The notes beneath the pieces were generated by a model. The model made no database searches. It saw only the letters and a list, made by a program, of their open reading frames with translations, and was not told the origin of the DNA. A program made the translations under genes and the position numbers. Source: Candidatus Latescibacterota bacterium (GTDB lineage Bacteria > Latescibacterota > UBA2968). Taken from it: DNA of 64,000 nucleotides. The stretch is from NCBI GenBank assembly GCA_965222605.1, contig OZ244960.1, forward strand, positions 3,008,001 through 3,072,000, given 5' to 3'. Shown one piece after another: positions 1,108 to 48,001 of the stretch; the stretch's first letter is position 1, and each line of letters starts with the position of its first letter.

Positions 1108-1142
1108 GCGGTGTACAACTGGCCGACTCTCAGGCCAGTTCA
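1108..1142 (+). repeat. Hairpin mini-element copy A (35 bp)
   Basis: GCGGTGTACAACTGGCC-GACTCTCA-GGCCAGTTCA, nested between the inverted arms CACCCGC / GCGGGTG. Confidence 0.8.
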
Positions 1143-1177
1143 CGCGGGTGCTTCTTTACTTTTCACACTTCACACTT

Positions 1178-3511: not shown

Positions 3512-4555
3512 TTACGCAAGCACCATGTGAATAGTAGGCGCTTTGAGTTGTTGTTTCAAATAATCAGCTAACAAGCCGTATTTGACCTGATAAACGGATT
3601 GTCGTGTTTGATAGGCGACCTGTGCAAATCGCACCCAAACGAGGAAGGCACATCCGATGTGATTGCGAACAATGCGTGGCAATCGACATTGACACTTTTC
3701 AAGACCCGTCACTTGTTTTGCTTCTCGGTGAAATTGCTCAATTTTCCAACGCCAGTGACACGCCTGTTGTGCCACTTGGGTATCGTTTTGGGCCTGGTCG
3801 TTAGTCACGACATATTCCGTGCGTCTGGTAGAAGACATCACCCGAAATAATTTCACTTTATGGTCTCTTGGAAAGCCTCTGATTTTAATGCGTTTGCCAG
3901 CTTTTGTCTCGCTGACCGTCCAATCTAAGCGGTCTATGCGTTGATAGGGTTTAGCACCTGAAGAATCATCCACACGCCGATTCGATTTGAGAGGGCAGTA
4001 ATAGGTTTTTTGCAGTTTCTCAATGTGTAGCATGACCGTCCTGGTGGCATACCAGCTATCCATTAACACGGTCTGAAAAGGCAGTTTTCTGGCATAGACC
4101 AAGACAGATAACATCTCCTGTAGATGATCTAACTTGGTTTTGCCATCCCCCTCAGGGTCATAAATGCGATAGTCAATGAAAAAGAACCGATCCTGATCGG
4201 GATGAACTGCTGGCGCAGTTGTACCCCGTTCGACATAAACGCAAGTGACGACCCCGATGCCGTTGATGACCCCTTTGGCATTGCCGCTATATTGACGCCG
4301 CACCAACGCAATCTTGTGGGCATGACGCTTGTCCAGCACTGTGTCATCGAAGATCACATAGCCCTTTGGGGTCACTTGAATGTGGTCTTTGACGTGTTCC
4401 CACACCAGGCGAGGCGGGATGCGATCACCGGATAGGTAACGGTTGATCATATCATGACTGAACCTTTGGCTGTGGTCTGCGAAATGGGTCAGCGTATAGT
4501 TGATTGGACTGCTCAGCAAATACTGACAGTAATCCAAGCGGGTTGGTTTATCCAT
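3512..4555 (-). CDS. IS701-family DDE transposase
   Basis: Motifs IFDDTVLDK, YSGNA, VLMDSWYA and RWKIEQFHREAKQ. RBS GAGGAGGTG precedes MDKPTR. The stop codon lies inside the left IR. Confidence 0.9.
   Translation of the reverse strand: MDKPTRLDYCQYLLSSPINYTLTHFADHSQRFSHDMINRYLSGDRIPPRLVWEHVKDHIQVTPKGYVIFDDTVLDKRHAHKIALVRRQYSGNAKGVINGIGVVTCVYVERGTTAPAVHPDQDRFFFIDYRIYDPEGDGKTKLDHLQEMLSVLVYARKLPFQTVLMDSWYATRTVMLHIEKLQKTYYCPLKSNRRVDDSSGAKPYQRIDRLDWTVSETKAGKRIKIRGFPRDHKVKLFRVMSSTRRTEYVVTNDQAQNDTQVAQQACHWRWKIEQFHREAKQVTGLEKCQCRLPRIVRNHIGCAFLVWVRFAQVAYQTRQSVYQVKYGLLADYLKQQLKAPTIHMVLA
4203..4229 (-). repeat. Hairpin mini-element copy B (27 bp, in frame within the transposase)
   Basis: Minus strand ACGGGGTACAACTGC-GCCA-GCAGTTCA. 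Encodes the extra peptide in YV-ERGTTAPAVH-PD. Confidence 0.8.
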
Positions 4556-16785: not shown

Positions 16786-16798
16786 GGGGCGCCTCCAG

Positions 16799-16825
16799 GC
16801 GGTGTACAACTGCGTCAGCAGTTCA
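16799..16825 (+). repeat. Hairpin mini-element copy C (27 bp)
   Basis: GCGGTGTACAACTGC-GTCA-GCAGTTCA between tmk and ctpA. Confidence 0.8.
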
Positions 16826-20940: not shown

Positions 20941-21127
20941 GTGCCTTCTGTGTGGGGAGTAACAGAATGCACTGACCAAAATATACACTGTCAAGTTTGT
21001 GTTGTCAAGAAAAAATGTTTTCATCTAACTCATCTATTTCTCAAGAATTTAGCTTGCCACGCGGCTCTTTTCAATTCATATTATGTTATGAAACTTTTAA
21101 ATGCGACTGACCTTTTGGGAGGGGTGT

Positions 21128-21631
21128 ATGAGGTTTGGTGAAATAATAAAACAAGCTCGTACTGGCCGATTTAGCCAGCAGGCTTTGGGTGAAAGTATTG
21201 GGGTGTGGGGCACTTATATCTATCAAATAGAAAAAGGCGAACGCATACCATCCGACGACGTGTGTACGAATCTTGCAAAAGCACTCGATCTCGATCCTCA
21301 ATTGCTTCTTTTTTTGGCGTATAAAGAACGCGCACAGAAAACAACCGAAGGCCGCAGACTTTTTACACAGATGGAAAAACTGATGACAGACCCTGTCATT
21401 AGCCAGGTAATTGCCGACCCAAAAATGCTTGACTCAGGCATTGTCAAAGCACTTCAGATTCCCAATATCCGCAAGGTACTCAAGAACAAGCAGTGGTGCG
21501 AAGCCCTGAACGCGAGTGCTTCAACTACAGACCGGGATATTCCCGAACTCATTAAGATTATCACCCAGATCCCCGCCCAACAATGGCAAGCATTGCTCAG
21601 TACAGCAAAAGCTTTTGCAGGCATAACTTGA
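21128..21631 (+). CDS. XRE-family helix-turn-helix regulator with C-terminal extension
   Basis: FGEIIKQAR...SQQALGESIGV...YIYQIEKGERIPS; RBS GGAGGGG. Confidence 0.85.
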   Translation: MRFGEIIKQARTGRFSQQALGESIGVWGTYIYQIEKGERIPSDDVCTNLAKALDLDPQLLLFLAYKERAQKTTEGRRLFTQMEKLMTDPVISQVIADPKMLDSGIVKALQIPNIRKVLKNKQWCEALNASASTTDRDIPELIKIITQIPAQQWQALLSTAKAFAGIT

Positions 21632-21738
21632 TCATATTAATGAAATTGAGGTGTATAATTTTCTACAGGATATTTCTGAAAGAAGCCACAGAATAGCGAT
21701 TACCATTACTGGCATGGCCTGAAATCCCCATTAAAATC

Positions 21739-21777
21739 AAAAAAGCCCGTTTTCTCGCGTTGAGAAACGGGCTTTTT
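21739..21777. terminator. Bidirectional intrinsic terminator
   Basis: AAAAAAGCCCGTTTTCTC-GCGTT-GAGAAACGGGCTTTTT. Confidence 0.85.
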
Positions 21778-21844
21778 ACATATTCTCTCAGGTTGTGATT
21801 ATCAATAATAAGTTAATCTACACTTCTATTTACTAACTTCCTAA

Positions 21845-21860
21845 TGTTTCACGTGGAACG
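21845..21860. promoter_or_regulatory. parS centromere-like site 1
   Basis: TGTTTCACGTGGAACG versus consensus TGTTNCACGTGAAACA; at the rsmG 3' end, near oriC. Confidence 0.85.
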
Positions 21861-21892
21861 GTTTACAACTGGTCGCAGTCCAGACCAGTTCA
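21858..21892 (+). repeat. Hairpin mini-element copy D (35 bp) in parS1; supplies the rsmG stop codon
   Basis: ACGGTTTACAACTGGTC-GCAGTCCA-GACCAGTTCA. Confidence 0.8.
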
Positions 21893-22528
21893 ACGTCTTT
21901 TAAGAAAGACAAAGGAACGTTTTCGTTCCATAAATGGTAAAGTCAAAGTGGCTTCAGTAGCATAGATGTCGCGTGGAACACCGTTTGTGAACTCGCTAAG
22001 AGCACATGGCCCTTTCATTGAAATAAGCACACCGCGGGGGGCGAGAAAAGGTTCAACCCAATTCCAGAGTTGGGGAAGCCGTGCAACTGCACGGGCTGTA
22101 CCAATCAGAAATTTACCCGCGAATGAGGAATCTCCAATAAGGTTCTCAGCGCGACTTCTGATAGCGAAAGTGCTTTGAAGGCCGAGCGCAGTAATCGTTT
22201 CCTGGAGAAAAAGGGCTTTCATGCGGGCGGGTTCGAGGAGATAAACTTCGAGGTCGGACCTCATAATCTTGATCACAATACCCGGCAGACCAGCACCCGA
22301 ACCCAAATCGAGGAGAGGTCCATCCATTGGAAGGTGCGGTACCAGCGAGAGACAATCGAGAATATGACGCTCCCATATAAAATTGCGGTCATTGCGGGAG
22401 ATCAATCGAACGCGAGCCGACCAATTGGTAAGCAAATTGACGTATTGCTGGAGCCTGACGACCTGTTCCTGAGAAAAAGAAAGGTCAAAGGACCTCTCCG
22501 CAAGCTCAATGGCCTCATTGGGTTGCAT
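21890..22528 (-). CDS. rsmG: 16S rRNA m7G527 methyltransferase RsmG (GidB)
   Basis: Motifs RHILDCL, LLDLGSGAGLPGI, RAE, ARAVA and MKG. Confidence 0.95.
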   Translation of the reverse strand: MQPNEAIELAERSFDLSFSQEQVVRLQQYVNLLTNWSARVRLISRNDRNFIWERHILDCLSLVPHLPMDGPLLDLGSGAGLPGIVIKIMRSDLEVYLLEPARMKALFLQETITALGLQSTFAIRSRAENLIGDSSFAGKFLIGTARAVARLPQLWNWVEPFLAPRGVLISMKGPCALSEFTNGVPRDIYATEATLTLPFMERKRSFVFLKRR

Positions 22529-22575
22529 TGGATATACCTTTAGAAAGACGTAAGACGACCGCCCAACCCCTCTTA

Positions 22576-22591
22576 TGTTTCACGTGAAACG
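22576..22591. promoter_or_regulatory. parS centromere-like site 2
   Basis: TGTTTCACGTGAAACG, 15/16 match to TGTTTCACGTGAAACA, between mnmE and rsmG. Confidence 0.9.
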
Positions 22592-22623
22592 GTGTACAAC
22601 TGGTCGTTTCTCAGACCAGTTCA
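22589..22623 (+). repeat. Hairpin mini-element copy E (35 bp) in parS2
   Basis: ACGGTGTACAACTGGTC-GTTTCTCA-GACCAGTTCA. Removing it restores the perfect palindrome ATGTTTCACGTGAAACAT. Confidence 0.85.
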
Positions 22624-22626
22624 ACA

Positions 22627-23973
22627 TTATTTGCCAATGCAAAAGGTTTTGAAGATTCGATCAAGAACATCATCTGGGGTAGTCTCCCCAATGATCGCGG
22701 CAAGCGCGTCGAGTGCAACGCGGAGATCCATGGCAATAATTTCCCCTGGATTGCCGAATTCAAGGCTTTGAAGAGCCTGGGAGAGTCCCGTTGAAGCCTG
22801 TTGAAGTGCGAGAACATGCCGTTCTTTGGTAACGATCTCGTCAGGCAGGTCGCTCTTTCCCAGGAGAGTCTCGCGAAGGCGATCACGCAGGGTGGAGATG
22901 CCATCGCCTGTTTTGGCTGAAAGAATAAGTTGGGGATGGAGAGACTGAACGCTTTGCCAACCCGTGTAGATACCGAGGTCGCTCTTATTGAGAACAAGAA
23001 ATGCGTGATCAAAACGACTGATGTTGTCCAGATCCAGGGTAGATGGAGGAAGCGATCCATCTACAATATAGAGAACAATAGCTGCGCGGTCTATGAATTG
23101 TTGAGACCGACGCGTACCCTCTCGTTCCACCGGGTCGTCGGTGTCGCGAATACCAGCAGTATCAACCAGTGTCACAGTGATTCCATTGAGATCTATCTGC
23201 TCTTCAATTGTGTCCCGAGTTGTACCGGGAATATCTGTAACAATCGCGCGGTCTTCTTCAAGAAGTCGGTTAAGAAGGCTGGATTTTCCCACATTGGGTT
23301 GACCTGCGAGAGTGATGACAGCCCCTTCACGAATAATTTTTCCGCGTTCATACGAAAGAATGAGATCTTCAATATGCCTTGAAGCCTGAGAGATCGGTGG
23401 CTTAATCATCTCGACATCTATCTCTACATCCTCGGAAAAGTCTAAACCGGCTTCAAGAAGCATGGCAGCCTGACGAATAGATTCTGCCATTTTTACGAAA
23501 CGGCGATGAAGCCCTCCTCGGAGTTGAAAAAAAGCAGATTGGAGGCTCAGATCAGATTTCGCGGTGATCATATCAGAAACTGCTTCGGCCTGTGAGAGGT
23601 CTATTTTACCGTTGAGGAAAGCTCGCCTGGTAAATTCACCAGGACCAGCGGGTCGAGCACCTTCATGGAAAATTGCTTCCATAATCCGTCTGAGGAGAAA
23701 AGGTCCCCCATGACAGTTAAATTCAACCGTATCGTCGCCGGTAAAGGAATTGGGGGCGCGCATGACTGAGATCAGGATTTTGTCAAAATCCCGACCCTGA
23801 ATGTAGAGATGTCCAAAAGAAAGTTGGCGAGACGGAAGGCGGCTGAGGGCGGTTTTGCCTTTGAAGAGATGTTCTGCTATTGAGATGGCATCTGGTCCGC
23901 TGAGCCTGATGATGCCAATTGCCCCTTCACCTGGAGCAGTGGCGATTGCGGCAATGGTATCTTTGTCAGACAT
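22627..23973 (-). CDS. mnmE: tRNA modification GTPase MnmE (TrmE)
   Basis: Motifs DTIAAIATAPG, GQPNVGKSS, GTTRD, DTAGIR, NKSD and C-terminal FCIGK. Confidence 0.97.
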   Translation of the reverse strand: MSDKDTIAAIATAPGEGAIGIIRLSGPDAISIAEHLFKGKTALSRLPSRQLSFGHLYIQGRDFDKILISVMRAPNSFTGDDTVEFNCHGGPFLLRRIMEAIFHEGARPAGPGEFTRRAFLNGKIDLSQAEAVSDMITAKSDLSLQSAFFQLRGGLHRRFVKMAESIRQAAMLLEAGLDFSEDVEIDVEMIKPPISQASRHIEDLILSYERGKIIREGAVITLAGQPNVGKSSLLNRLLEEDRAIVTDIPGTTRDTIEEQIDLNGITVTLVDTAGIRDTDDPVEREGTRRSQQFIDRAAIVLYIVDGSLPPSTLDLDNISRFDHAFLVLNKSDLGIYTGWQSVQSLHPQLILSAKTGDGISTLRDRLRETLLGKSDLPDEIVTKERHVLALQQASTGLSQALQSLEFGNPGEIIAMDLRVALDALAAIIGETTPDDVLDRIFKTFCIGK

Positions 23974-23986
23974 AGAAATAAACCGA

Positions 23987-25690
23987 TCAGGACGTGCCCA
24001 ACATCGATTTGGTTCTTTCCATAATGATCTGCTGGGCGAGGGTCAGCACATTGTAGAGCGTGTAATAAAACACGAGACCTGAAGACATAGTCCAGAAAAT
24101 ATAGGTGAGAAAGACGGGCATGATATACACAAGGACAGCCTGTTTGGGATCTTTCATCATCATCTTTTGCTGAATAAACATCGACACGCCCATTAAAAGA
24201 GGCAAGAGGTGCAGGTCAAAACCGCCAATGGGGATGGTATCTGGTTGGGAAAGATCGGTGATCCAGAGAGCGAATCCAGCTTGCCGGAGTTCAATAGTAC
24301 CACGAAAGAGAGAGAAAAGAGAAAACAGTATGGGCATCTGTAAAACCATAGGCAAACATCCACCGATGGGGTTGATCTTCTCCTCCCGGTAGAGTTTCAT
24401 CATGGCCGTGTTCATCTTTTGCTGGTCTTTAGCATAACGCTCGCGGAGTTCGGCAATTTTGGGTTGGAGAGTCTGCATCTTGGCAGTGGATTCAAGACTC
24501 TTGTGCGTGAGTGGGAAAACAACGACCTTGACGAGAATAGAAAAAAGAATTATGACCACGCCGTAGTTTGGAACCAGAGCGTGCATGGCCAGGAAGGCTT
24601 TAAGAATTAAAATTGTAACTGGCTTGAGAATGGCGCGCACAAAATAAGGACCGTAATCGACAAAGTCATCGAGGTTCAGTTCTCGTTCAAGTCCATCAAA
24701 GTCATGATTTTGAGCACGCAAAATGTTATAAGAAATTGGGCCAATATATGCGGAGTAATTGATAATATTAAGTCCAGAATCAGCATACATATCAAAAGCA
24801 AAATCGCGATAAGAAAAGCCAAGTGGGTCAATTATAGTATCACCGTATAGGGCGAGGTCATAACGACCATCGTTGGGGATAACCGCGGCGAGAAAGTATT
24901 TATTTCTTACGCCAATCCAGGTCAGTTGACCGCTCGGGGGCGTCTCTTTTTCCTGAAGGCGGTCTGTATCCCATGTTTCAACTTCCCCTCCCATGTAGGT
25001 GACGATTTGTTCGTAAGCACCTTCGTAAAAACTCTCTGAAGTACCGCGCTTATTTTCTGTATCAGCGAGACCACCATCCCATGTTATCGCCAATTTATCA
25101 TCTCGAGCAAGCCCTTCAGCTATGACGGAAACGTGAATGCGATATCGGTTGCCCTGAAAACGGAAACGTTTCTCGACTGGACCACGCGGAGATTGAGCGC
25201 GAAATACGATCAAGTCTTGCGTATCACCATAAATGTCAAGGCGATCGCGATCGGGGATAAATTCGAGACTATTGAGGGACTCACTTGCAATAGTAGCTCC
25301 AAGTCCAGCACCGTTGGGTGCCATCACTTCCAGCCAATTGCCATTGCCATCAAAGTAGGTCTTGAGTTGCCAACTGGTAATTACGCCACCGCGCGTGGAG
25401 ATGACAGCGCGGTAGAGTTCGGCATCTATGACAATATCACGTGCCTGGAACGTCGATGTAGAGGCTGGCTTTTCGTCCTGGATAGGAGGTTGCTGGATTT
25501 CTGGTTGTTGTGTGGGTTGACGTTCGGGAGATGTATCAGTAATCTGCGGTGGTTCAGTTTGGCGAGGGGCAGGTTTTTTTACAGGATTAGAAGGCTGAGG
25601 AGTGTCACCCTGCTGGAATTGCATGTAATACGGCATCAGTATCAAAATCAGGCCGATTAACGCAAAGGCAATTACCGTGCGTTTATCCAT
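23987..25690 (-). CDS. yidC: Membrane protein insertase YidC
   Basis: N-terminal TM, periplasmic domain, NYGVVII, LQPKI, GGCLPMVLQMPI and WITDLS. Confidence 0.96.
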   Translation of the reverse strand: MDKRTVIAFALIGLILILMPYYMQFQQGDTPQPSNPVKKPAPRQTEPPQITDTSPERQPTQQPEIQQPPIQDEKPASTSTFQARDIVIDAELYRAVISTRGGVITSWQLKTYFDGNGNWLEVMAPNGAGLGATIASESLNSLEFIPDRDRLDIYGDTQDLIVFRAQSPRGPVEKRFRFQGNRYRIHVSVIAEGLARDDKLAITWDGGLADTENKRGTSESFYEGAYEQIVTYMGGEVETWDTDRLQEKETPPSGQLTWIGVRNKYFLAAVIPNDGRYDLALYGDTIIDPLGFSYRDFAFDMYADSGLNIINYSAYIGPISYNILRAQNHDFDGLERELNLDDFVDYGPYFVRAILKPVTILILKAFLAMHALVPNYGVVIILFSILVKVVVFPLTHKSLESTAKMQTLQPKIAELRERYAKDQQKMNTAMMKLYREEKINPIGGCLPMVLQMPILFSLFSLFRGTIELRQAGFALWITDLSQPDTIPIGGFDLHLLPLLMGVSMFIQQKMMMKDPKQAVLVYIMPVFLTYIFWTMSSGLVFYYTLYNVLTLAQQIIMERTKSMLGTS

Positions 25691-25757: not shown

Positions 25758-26105
25758 TCAAGAGTCGATAAGACCGAGCTTTTGAAACGCGAGGTGTAGT
25801 TCCAGACGGAGTTCGGCATAAGAGACACCGTAAGCGTGGTCTCCTATGGAGATAATCATCAAACAGTGAGGATGGCCTAAAGGTATTAGTTCGGAACATA
25901 TTGCACGTACTTGCCGGCGGATGCGATTGCGCCGAACTGCGTTTCCAAATTTTTTCCTAATTGAAATGAGCGTTAGATCCATCTCGGAAGTACCAATCCG
26001 AACATGAACCCAACGCCCACGAAAGATTTGGCCGTGCTGTCGAATTTTCGCTATTTCGCGTCGAATGCGTAGGTTGGGTGTTCCCATAACACACCTACAT
26101 ATCAA
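25758..26105 (-). CDS. rnpA: Ribonuclease P protein component
   Basis: RNR motif [14 protein letters not shown]; lies between rpmH and yidC. Start codon uncertain. Confidence 0.88.
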
Positions 26106-26764: not shown

Positions 26765-28147
26765 ATGGATGAACGCTCTTCTAACTTATGGAACCGGTGT
26801 CTCCACGCCATCCAGGAAAAAATACAGGATCAAAGTTTTGAAACCTGGTTCGCTCCTATTACGGCGCGGCAATTTACCTCTGAAGAAGCTATTCTGGTGG
26901 TGCCAGAGAGAATTTATGCCGATTGGTTAGAACAAAATTACATCGGGTTGATCAAAACGACCATCCAGGAAGTCTTCACATGGAATCCGCGGATAACTTT
27001 TACGGTTGGTAATACTCATCAACAGATGTCATCTCCTGTGACACATGGTCCCGAATTTATGCACGGAGCACCTCTCGATTCCGTATCTGCGGTGCCATCT
27101 CTTCATCCTGGACCTGTCCAACCTGTATTTCCTCTGAATCCACGCTACCGGTTTGACAATTTTGTTGTCGGTGACAGCAATGAGGTGTCGTTTTCGGCAG
27201 CAAAAGCCACAGCAGAGTTACCTGGACAAACAGCTTTTAATCCCCTTGTCCTTTATAGCGGCGTTGGATTGGGAAAAACCCACCTGTTACAGGCCATTGG
27301 TGCATACTGTATCGAAATGGGGACAGCTCAACGGGTAGTTTATGTTACTGCACAACAGTTTCTTACAGATTATTTAGAAGGAATCAATCGCGGAACAACC
27401 TCTAATTTCTATCAAACCTATCGCCAGGCGGATGTGTTGCTGGTTGATGACATCCAGTATTATGTGAAAACCGAAGGTTGCCAAAGAGAGTTTATCCATA
27501 CATTTAATGCCCTATTTCAAGCAGATAAACAGATCATCATCAGCTCTGATCGTCCGCCGTCTCATCTCAAGGGGTTTGAAGATCGGTTGATTTCTCGGTT
27601 TCAATGGGGTTTGGTTACAAATATCGAAGCACCAGACCTTCCCACGCGTGTGGCGATTTTAATGCAAAAAGCAGAAGAAATGGGCGTTTCATTGTCCCAC
27701 GAAATTGCGAGTTTCTTAGCTGAACAGATCGATACCAATATACGCGAACTTGAAGGTGCATTAAAACGCCTGGTGGCCTTTACCAAATTACAACGCTATC
27801 CACTCACGATTGAAACAGCGCGAAAGACGCTGCTAAGTCCGCCCCAAAAGACCAAACCGACTGTTACTATTGAGAGCATTCAAAAAGCTGCAGCCCACTT
27901 TTTTGAAATACCTTTAGATAAACTGGTGGGTACAACCCGAAAGCAAGATGTGGCAACAGCCCGGCATGTGAGTATGTATTTGAGCAAATCTCTTACAGGT
28001 GCTCCACTCAAGACCATTGGTGTGCAATTTGGAAATCGCGATCACAGCACAGTTATTCACGCCTGCCGGAGAGTAGAGAGCAAAATATCGTCGGATCCAG
28101 AATTCGAACATCTTGTAAGTGAACTACAAGATCATATCGTAGGTTAA
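26765..28147 (+). CDS. dnaA: Chromosomal replication initiator DnaA
   Basis: Motifs SFETWF, YRFDNFVVG, NPLVLYSGVGLGKTHL, LLVDDIQ, RLISRF, NIRELEGAL and RDHSTVIHA. Confidence 0.98.
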   Translation: MDERSSNLWNRCLHAIQEKIQDQSFETWFAPITARQFTSEEAILVVPERIYADWLEQNYIGLIKTTIQEVFTWNPRITFTVGNTHQQMSSPVTHGPEFMHGAPLDSVSAVPSLHPGPVQPVFPLNPRYRFDNFVVGDSNEVSFSAAKATAELPGQTAFNPLVLYSGVGLGKTHLLQAIGAYCIEMGTAQRVVYVTAQQFLTDYLEGINRGTTSNFYQTYRQADVLLVDDIQYYVKTEGCQREFIHTFNALFQADKQIIISSDRPPSHLKGFEDRLISRFQWGLVTNIEAPDLPTRVAILMQKAEEMGVSLSHEIASFLAEQIDTNIRELEGALKRLVAFTKLQRYPLTIETARKTLLSPPQKTKPTVTIESIQKAAAHFFEIPLDKLVGTTRKQDVATARHVSMYLSKSLTGAPLKTIGVQFGNRDHSTVIHACRRVESKISSDPEFEHLVSELQDHIVG

Positions 28148-47928: not shown

Positions 47929-47954
47929 TGAATTTCTGCGAAGTTGTACACCGC
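47929..47954 (-). repeat. Hairpin mini-element copy F (26 bp)
   Basis: Minus strand GCGGTGTACAACTTC-GCA-GAAATTCA. Confidence 0.7.
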
Positions 47955-48001
47955 TCCGATTAAAGTCACACATGACGTTAATTTTTATTAAACGCCATCT
48001 T

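Follow-up and report, generated by a model that had tools for sequence, protein, structure and literature searches.

Several kinds of very small or hairpin-bearing mobile repeats have been described in bacteria. The cyanobacterial families SDR1-8, reportedly described by Elhai and colleagues in 2008, are said to be very small hairpin units of 21-27 nt that show compensatory changes, insert into one another and often lie in tandem heptamer arrays; we know of no transposase for them. Elements of the IS200/IS605 group use single-strand HUH transposition, insert in a specific orientation 3' of a short target without duplicating it, and carry hairpin ends. Other insertion sequences (IS) such as IS1397 are said, following Tobes and Pareja in 2006, to target the REP/BIME palindromes. 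In the outline given by Di Nocera et al. (2013, PMC3733652), a REP is an imperfect palindrome of 20-40 bp with a GTAG or CGTC tag, present in tens to hundreds of copies, mostly downstream of genes; inverted doublets of such units, the REPINs, appear in Bertels and Rainey (2011, PMC3116915). Here we describe a 35-nt hairpin repeat that sits inside both chromosomal centromere (parS) sites of a Candidatus Latescibacterota bacterium (G000, a 6.34-Mb single-contig genome of 51% G+C). The window analysed is the 64,000-nt stretch C1:3008001-3072000 of that genome, and positions are window positions unless marked as genome positions. With a probability of roughly 0.72, we propose that the two parS copies, called D and E, are separate insertions of a genus-restricted, non-autonomous 35-nt hairpin repeat at a heptamer-like target that the parS half-site mimics.

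The first site, parS1, has the 16-mer TGTTTCACGTGGAACG at 21845-21860 with its 14-bp core GTTTCACGTGGAAC at 21846-21859, and overlaps the ancestral 3' end of rsmG. The second, parS2, has the 16-mer TGTTTCACGTGAAACG at 22576-22591 with its core at 22577-22590, and in its empty state directly follows the mnmE stop codon. The two are 731 bp apart, and their letters are TGTTTCACGTGGAAC at 21845-21859 and TGTTTCACGTGAAAC at 22576-22590. Each 16-mer has one mismatch on its best strand to the consensus TGTTNCACGTGAAACA, and the 14-bp core is perfect in both. A scan of the whole genome found 11 places at two mismatches or fewer, and only parS1 and parS2 at one mismatch or fewer with a CACGTG centre. 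Thus the genome-wide list of parS sites, proposed in the preliminary description as a check, comes to two in G000, and both carry the element.

The 35-nt unit consists of GGTGTAC, an 8-bp stem, an 8-nt loop, the returning stem and CAAC, and is placed after the GTGRAAC of parS. Site 1 (21845-21894) reads TAATGTTTCACGTGGAAC, then GGTTTAC, AACTGGTC, GCAGTCCA, GACCAGTT and CAAC, then GTCTTTTAAG. Copy D is on the plus strand at 21860-21894, with GGTTTAC at 21860-21866, the stem arms at 21867-21874 and 21883-21890, the loop GCAGTCCA between them at 21875-21882, and CAAC at 21891-21894. Site 2 (22576-22625) reads TTATGTTTCACGTGAAAC, then GGTGTAC, AACTGGTC, GTTTCTCA, GACCAGTT and CAAC, then ATTATTTGCC. 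Copy E is likewise on the plus strand at 22591-22625 (GGTGTAC 22591-22597, stem arms 22598-22605 and 22614-22621, loop GTTTCTCA 22606-22613, CAAC 22622-22625). A 30-nt pattern that leaves the loop open has exactly two matches in the window, and 100 shuffled versions yielded none. The preliminary description had reported the same unit at the same position of both sites with differing loops, and loops and letters are as it gave them. It had placed the insert after the 13th base of parS; the insert is there, but this is one of four equivalent registers, since AAC stands on both sides and leaves the insertion point ambiguous by 3 nt.

What does the insert do to the sites that it enters? The first letters of the unit, (AAC)G, leave the 14-bp core as it was, and within the 16-mer the insertion changes position 16 only (A to G in E). 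Excising copy E on paper yields the 18-mer ATGTTTCACGTGAAACAT, which is the real empty site of a relative, G019. The variant GTGGAAC differs at a position that the consensus leaves free (N), and it is not a mark of the element because it is also present in left halves without an insert (G002, G012, G013, G020 and G006). In G000, rsmG ends in KRR and a TGA stop that is the TCA of copy D at 21890-21892; without copy D the frame would read KRRST and stop within parS, as had been predicted, and in truly empty relatives the gene ends in ..RRFT with the stop in CACGTGA. Copy D thus shortens rsmG by two C-terminal residues, and mnmE is unaffected. Among the 21 genomes of the genus the core GTTYCACGTGRAAC is found at both positions in every one, with 37 of the 42 sites perfect and five with a single mismatch; ten further one-mismatch core matches occur elsewhere in these genomes, and a reversed-pattern control gives more. 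The earlier suggestions that parS stays almost intact because the element starts with ACG, and that insertion would be near-neutral, agree with this conservation of the core and with the small cost to the flanking genes. ParB presumably still binds the filled sites.

The comparison covers 21 genomes of the genus, G000 included, and an outgroup of ten genomes from five sister genera. All are metagenome-assembled genomes, and 13 of the 21 are single-contig. The right half of site 1 is filled in 17 of the 21 and that of site 2 in 16; four genomes (G001, G010, G016 and G018) lack the hairpin at both sites, and in G019 it is present at site 1 and absent from site 2. An empty site 1 reads GTGAAAC, then G or A, then TCTTTGAAG, and an empty site 2 reads GTGAAACA, then T or C, then TATTTGCC; at site 2 of G018 (L043) there is only a 9-10-nt duplication of the half-site (GTGAAACACCGTGAAAC). 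In a midpoint-rooted tree built from 3,690 columns of three linked genes (mnmE, rsmG and yidC), a single branch with 100% support splits off the four empty genomes. The state of the region in the outgroup was read from four sister genera (G021-G024), in which parS directly follows the mnmE stop and is free of the element; in two of the four a second parS lies about 650-680 bp further on. Because the empty genomes form one clade and these sister genera are all element-free, the empty state is ancestral, and on this alignment the parS hairpins are derived, secondary insertions into pre-existing sites. The preliminary description had taken them for insertions, and the alignment of the mnmE-rsmG region bears it out: parS with its hairpin is not uniformly ancestral, four of the 21 genus members have empty sites, and so do all four of the sister genera examined at this locus.

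The gains at site 1 and site 2 were separate, because G019 has only the first filled, because 6 of the 35 positions separate D from E while 3 of 35 separate E from its site-2 orthologue in G004, and because the flanks to the right of D and E are unrelated. The filled clade begins with three lineages whose order the tree does not resolve, and G019 is one of them. Further insertions struck the other arm. In G004, G008, G007 and G017 the left half of parS1 holds an insert in reverse orientation, either 35 nt long or composite, flanked by GTT..GTT, the exact mirror of AAC..AAC; in G008 it reads ACTTTT, GTTGCACTGGTCTGGGCAACGACCAGTTGTATCCC, GTTTCATGTGGAAC, and G004 has also lost some 30 bp of the former left flank. 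Fitch parsimony, counted by hand on the three-gene tree, assigns four changes to these left-half inserts; by parsimony they stand for a minimum of two and a maximum of four additional events, the one in G004 being certainly separate from the others. The idea that parS is targeted is thus strengthened by mirror inserts that hit it recurrently and by the separate hits on the two sites.

The filled sites also underwent later insertions and decay. Site 2 of G015 has a tandem second copy, and tandem hits adjoin the element's own GTTCAAC end. Nested copies or other small hairpins lie in the loop or between GTA and C, so that inserts reach 149 nt (G020); the nested inserts that split parS hairpins measure 20-115 nt. 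The nested insert at site 1 of G007 and G017 resembles the site-2 insert of their clade. The 3' stem has been lost at site 1 of G004 and G014, the insert of G005 is truncated to 20 nt, and the loop has been deleted at site 2 of G011. The nearest relatives of G000, G014 and G004, share a deleted GTATC.. version of the site-1 insert, and the loop of copy D is the commonest loop in G000 (5 of 34 copies), which suggests that copy D was replaced by, or converted from, another copy of the family.

Some of the compared regions have peculiarities of their own. Site 2 of G019 (L037) lacks about 110 bp comprising the rsmG 5' end, spacer and element (compare window 22500-22626), and its rsmG seems to start at an ATG within parS2 (ATGTTTCACGTGAAACAT) that overlaps the mnmE stop (TAATG). 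In G024 (L097) two perfect parS cores lie 26 bp apart at the end of mnmE. In G001 (L142, C1:4618128-4618274) the empty parS1 has, some 270 bp away, a fragment of 49 residues that matches Y1_Tnp, and the sequence upstream of that site is unrelated to the other genomes.

Beyond parS, the repeat forms a family confined to the genus in this comparison. G000 has 34 intact copies (pattern GGTGTAC-AAC.....-N8-.....GTT-CA) and 90 nhmmer hits at E up to 10, fragments included. Over the 21 genomes there are 679 copies, from three each in G010 and G018 to 127 in G014 (70 in G020, 49 in G004, 36 in G017), and none in the ten genomes of the five sister genera; the reversed control matches nothing. Two stem pairs that the pattern leaves free are complementary in 34 of 34 copies each (TA 23, GC 10, GT 1 for one; TA 20, CG 10, GC 4 for the other), so it is the structure, not the sequence, that is conserved in mid-stem. 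Most G000 copies appear to be single, with a few inverted or nested pairs (genome 4034018-4034089 and 4940776-4940900). A shorter sub-family, GGTGTACAACTGC-N4-GCAGTTCA, has a 6-bp stem, a 4-nt loop and the same 5' tag; it occurs in the window at 4216-4231 (minus), 16798-16812 (plus) and 47942-47957 (minus), at about 30 further places in the genome, and nested within composite parS inserts of relatives. Its members are probably the copies B and C of the preliminary description. An Rfam scan of 21000-23500 at E up to 1 placed nothing on the hairpins and gave two sub-threshold chance hits at 21736-21839. The likeness to SDRs had raised the suspicion of a cyanobacterial origin, which was dropped; HIP1 is not enriched in the genome (163 copies against about 105 expected).

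Where else does the element land? For four further copies in G000, relatives offer an empty site for comparison (genome positions; a slash marks the insertion point). At 4411373 the empty site reads TTTTGTGAC/AAATCAC in G004 and TTGTGAAACGTC in G019 (empty letters GTGAAACGTC), and the filled one GTGACGAAA, then the element GGTGTAC..CAGTTCA, then ATCAC, which makes the target TTGTGAC/AA. At 4694235 the empty site is GTGAGGG GTAAAAC/GTAAAAG in G004 and a longer array of GTGAGAT and GTAAGAC in G014; filled, it reads GTAGAAC, the element GGTGTAC..CAGTTCAAC, then GCAAAAG, with the AAC..AAC layout seen in parS. At 2707868 the insert lies inside a heptamer array whose empty state is GGGATTA GGG/ATTA. 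At 1348064 the empty site begins ATGTGAAGTGTG.. and the target is GTGAAGTGTG; the flanks have diverged there and the junction is inexact. The filled site is longer by close to 35 nt at 1348064 and by a net 35 nt at the other three, where the junctions are clean. All four fit a 35-mer, AAC-GGTGTAC-stem-loop-stem-C, placed between a purine and A in a single orientation, and empty sites among close relatives are seamless; given the AAC ambiguity a 3-bp duplication is possible at some sites, though not at 2707868. Three of these four targets are GT-purine heptamer-like (GTAAAAC, GTGAA..), and none is palindromic. A clean empty site could not be recovered for 438598 (part of a larger, multi-copy repeat), for 1101690 and 4047753 (where relatives diverge at the site), or for the window's copy A.

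Statistics on the flanks point the same way. Of the 34 G000 copies, 11 are directly preceded by a 7-mer of the form GNRRRRY (random positions: 0.8%), and 10 have GTRRRR somewhere in the 28 nt upstream of them (random windows: 7%). Among the period-7 arrays that TRF reports at a low threshold, 46 are tandem heptamers of the GTGAAGT, GTGAGAC and GTAAGAG kinds, and period-7 heptamer arrays flank parS2 in many relatives; in G000 a short run (GAAAGAC GTAAGAC GACCGCC, plus strand, 22543-22563) stands upstream of it where relatives have longer (GTAAGAC)n arrays. The full junction, GTGRAAC followed by NNKKTAYAAC, occurs 55 times in the genus, 19 times at parS and 36 times elsewhere, and once in the reversed control. 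Because the non-parS targets, the flank statistics and the 36 junctions away from parS agree, the parS half-site appears to be the best-conserved example of the sequence at which the element usually lands, and we infer that this landing motif is read by sequence.

We envision the following course of events. The element would always enter in the same orientation, directly 3' of a heptamer-like sequence rich in purines (GT-R-R before AAC; GTGA before AAC in parS), adding exactly 35 nt without target duplication past the ambiguous AAC, and the half-site GTGAAAC would be a perfect instance of this landing motif. In our proposal parS is a permanent target because selection for ParB binding keeps the half-site constant, and a hit would be near-neutral and persistent because the (AAC)G start rebuilds the 14-bp core. 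As for the enzymology, our guess is single-strand cut-and-paste by an HUH protein (IS200/IS605 or RAYT-like), which would cut behind GTRR at the left end and behind GTTC at the right. The fixed size, the orientation, the lack of duplication, the tandem hits, the seamless empty sites, the unpaired 5' tag and the covarying stem fit such a reaction.

Could the element instead recognise structure? parS would then have been hit simply as a palindrome of 16-18 bp, in line with the preliminary suggestion that palindromes in general are targeted. There is something to be said for this: copy A (1108-1143, plus strand, stem AACTGGCC/GGCCAGTT) lies between CACCCGCG and CGCGGGTG amid inverted heptamer arrays, nested copies lie within the loops of resident hairpins, and several copies are next to terminator-like hairpins. 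However, the parS insert is not at the palindrome centre but at its 3' foot, 7 nt from the dyad, at a point that is defined by sequence and has its exact mirror image on the other arm. None of the four resolved targets is a palindrome; they consist of heptamers or of a T-run with GTGA, and 36 GTGRAAC junctions lie off parS. Copy A is indeed in a palindrome centre, as had been noted, but its empty state was not recovered. We therefore regard structural targeting of cruciform- or hairpin-forming DNA as unlikely, and the targeting of palindromes in general is not supported.

A history in which one parS was hit and the insert was then copied to the other by duplication or gene conversion would do away with targeting altogether; it had been put forward as the alternative. 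The short distance between the sites, the 14-16 bp that they share to the left of the insert and the same 3'-terminal CCAGTTCAAC would suit it, and the nested site-1 insert of G007 and G017, with its likeness to their clade's site 2, makes some exchange possible. Yet homology ends at the right edge of the inserts (GTCTTTTAAG against ATTATTTGCC), E is closer to its G004 orthologue (3/35) than D is to E (6/35), and G019 holds one filled and one empty site; the mirror-image inserts in the left half and the 36 identical junctions elsewhere would be left unexplained. We find such copying highly improbable. A different thought is that selection keeps the hairpin for a function beside parS, as a barrier to transcription or ParB spreading or as a 3' mRNA stabiliser for rsmG and mnmE. 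In fact, the filled clade has retained the insert in 17 of 17 genomes at site 1 and 16 of 17 at site 2, the termini (G.T.TAC.. and ..CCAGTTCAAC) are kept even where the interior has been rebuilt, and REPs downstream of genes are thought, in the account of PMC3733652, to act as RNA elements. Against it, the hairpin is broken in G004 and G014 (site-1 3' stem), G005 (20 nt) and G011 (site-2 loop), hairpins elsewhere are split by nested inserts of 20-115 nt, the four genomes of clade A and the sister genera do without it, and no T-run follows it on the transcribed strand. Recruitment for a function thus strikes us as very unlikely.

Several observations weigh against separate, sequence-directed insertion. 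The right-half inserts need just one gain per site, given the single split in the tree, and shared ancestry rather than 17 events accounts for most of the occupancy. The target rule derives from few loci: the landing motif rests on the four resolved non-parS loci and the flank statistics, and one of the four, 2707868, has the target GGGATTA, which is not of the GT-purine kind. Some of the signal in the left flanks might come from the element itself or from larger repeats; for instance, one flank is common to 4 of the 34 copies, and G016 has seven identical junctions. In G000, 2 of 1323 other GTGRAAC sites carry a family copy (one a degenerate long copy, one a short variant) against two of the four parS half-sites. 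This occupancy of parS above what the motif alone would predict may arise because the other sites lie mostly in genes and parS is constant over time. Contigs from four public runs, in which rare variants would be invisible, contain both inserts, with no joint across either and no excision or polymorphism.

The same holds for the search for a mobilising enzyme, in which no transposase could be linked to the family in the genus. The palindromes beside the two RAYT-like open reading frames (ORFs) of G000 are of the GTAG type, and the nearest family copy is more than 1.5 kb away from either. A RAYT-like protein occurs in 9 of the 21 genomes (G014 and G020 among them) and also in element-free sister genera; one family copy does lie 20 nt downstream of the homologue in G011. 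Pfam Y1_Tnp matches 13 of the 21 genomes and has no match in G014, G020, G004 or G017. The 34 copies of G000 show no replication-strand bias, being about equally divided, by hand count, between the strands of each replichore, and here IS200/IS605 elements differ. The mobiliser may have been lost or be too divergent for these queries.

Candidate enzymes and likenesses were rejected in turn. RAYT and IS200 proteins are set aside because their presence does not track the family, and the single IS200-type copy in G000 has hairpins unrelated to the 35-nt unit. Reverse transcriptase (Pfam RVT_1) is found in 9 of 21 genomes, with no match in G000, G004, G007, G009 or G017, each of which has 30-49 copies. 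A likeness to integron attC sites, judged by eye only (stem closed by AAC/GTT, GTT at the mirrored junctions), did not hold up: the R-box consensus fits poorly and the unit is far shorter. The RAYT-like ORFs themselves (genome 3942129-3942623, in the region L023 at 3940818-3944087, and genome 5722921-5723460, in the region L022 at 5721463-5724627) encode 185 and 180 aa with YFVT..NHxH motifs, and the GTAG-tagged palindromes beside them, for example GTAGGGGCGAGGCA/TGCCTCGCCC, form a second, classical REP system in the genome.

Set beside the described systems, the nearest analogue of the family would be the cyanobacterial SDRs. The likeness lies in the tiny size, the structure-preserving variation, the nested self-insertion and the heptamer-array context; it says that the element works like an SDR, not that it belongs among them. 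The Latescibacterota unit is longer and unrelated in sequence, and the palindrome that it strikes, at the foot, is a functional protein-binding centromere of the chromosome. With REPs and REPINs, as far as the accounts cited above describe them, it shares the short imperfect palindrome, the many copies, the conserved unpaired tag 5' of the stem and sub-families with other stems. It differs in its tag, GTAC (GGTGTAC) in place of GTAG or CGTC, seemingly in copies that are mostly single rather than inverted doublets, and in that the RAYT-like genes with their GTAG palindromes have no consistent link to the family. IS200/IS605 elements have in common with it oriented insertion 3' of a short specific target, absence of duplication, hairpin ends, a target-like right end that leads to tandem hits, and seamless empty sites; unlike them it has one hairpin instead of two subterminal ones, is only 35 nt long and shows no replication-strand bias, and Y1_Tnp was not found in 8 of the 21 genomes. 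IS1397-type elements also have a fixed insertion point inside a short conserved palindromic motif, but those are full IS with a transposase on selfish repeats, and here a 35-nt unit sits on two centromere sites. Our search of the literature for parS with REP insertions or with miniature inverted-repeat transposable elements, and for repeats of Latescibacteria, found no report of a repeat inside a chromosomal parS, supplements being outside the search. Very small hairpin repeats are thus already known, and what appears new and biologically notable is the target.

Both sites belong to the origin region, as the minimum of the cumulative GC skew lies at about 3.0 Mb of the contig, at the start of the window, and the parS sites at 3.030 Mb. 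The genes around them are rsmG (16S rRNA m7G527 methyltransferase, 21890-22528, minus strand, 212 aa; TIGR00138, 118 bits), mnmE (tRNA modification GTPase, 22627-23973, minus, 448 aa, stop TAA at 22627-22629; NF003661, 380 bits), yidC (23987-25690, minus), rnpA (25758-26105, minus) and dnaA (26765-28147, plus), which marks the replication origin region 4.1-4.9 kb from the parS sites. Between an XRE-type gene (21101-21631) and parS1 a two-way terminator-like hairpin, AAAAAGCCCGTTTCTCGCGTTGAGAAACGGGCTTTTT (21744-21779), is kept in most relatives. A ParB gene is present (TIGR00180, 191 bits, genome C1:5240094-5240633); this sole full-length homologue lies 2.2 Mb from the parS sites and the origin, away from the usual rsmG-parA-parB arrangement. 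Two paralogous ORFs of 175-178 aa (L025 and L026, genome 465597-465761 and 3263026-3263193) match only the ParB HTH part (TIGR00180 positions 104-158, about 30 bits) and lack the ParB N-terminal domain, one of them beside an XRE-type gene; nothing was found that ties them to the hairpin element. The convergent intergenic spacer at 1030-1180, compared with relatives (L103-L117), has different inverted heptamer arrays in each species (GAAGTGA, TTAATTC, CATCTGCGTC..) and is a hot spot of small-repeat turnover.

What may this mean for the organism? A chromosome has few parS sites; ParB loading depends on them, they are usually regarded as untouchable, and here both have absorbed a mobile repeat with their core kept. 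In some species both arms of one parS even carry it! These genomes thus hold a natural series of parS sites with 0-149 nt inserted 1-3 bp outside the core, which bears on the flank that ParB needs, and the 21 related genomes supply empty and filled sites for the study of mobility. An uncultured phylum would also become a second lineage in which tiny hairpin repeats nest within one another and are associated with heptamer arrays. It is a tentative thought, and a doubtful one, that we are looking at a new class of 35-nt mobile hairpins outside cyanobacteria, without a recognisable transposase or reverse transcriptase, with a GT-purine heptamer for an address, with a machinery that perhaps also builds the heptamer arrays around them, and with centromere half-sites, frozen by selection, as a permanent landing pad; the centromere sequence and a selfish element would then be coupled. 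In the separate-insertion reading that we prefer, a conserved protein-binding site becomes a hot spot by mimicking the element's target.

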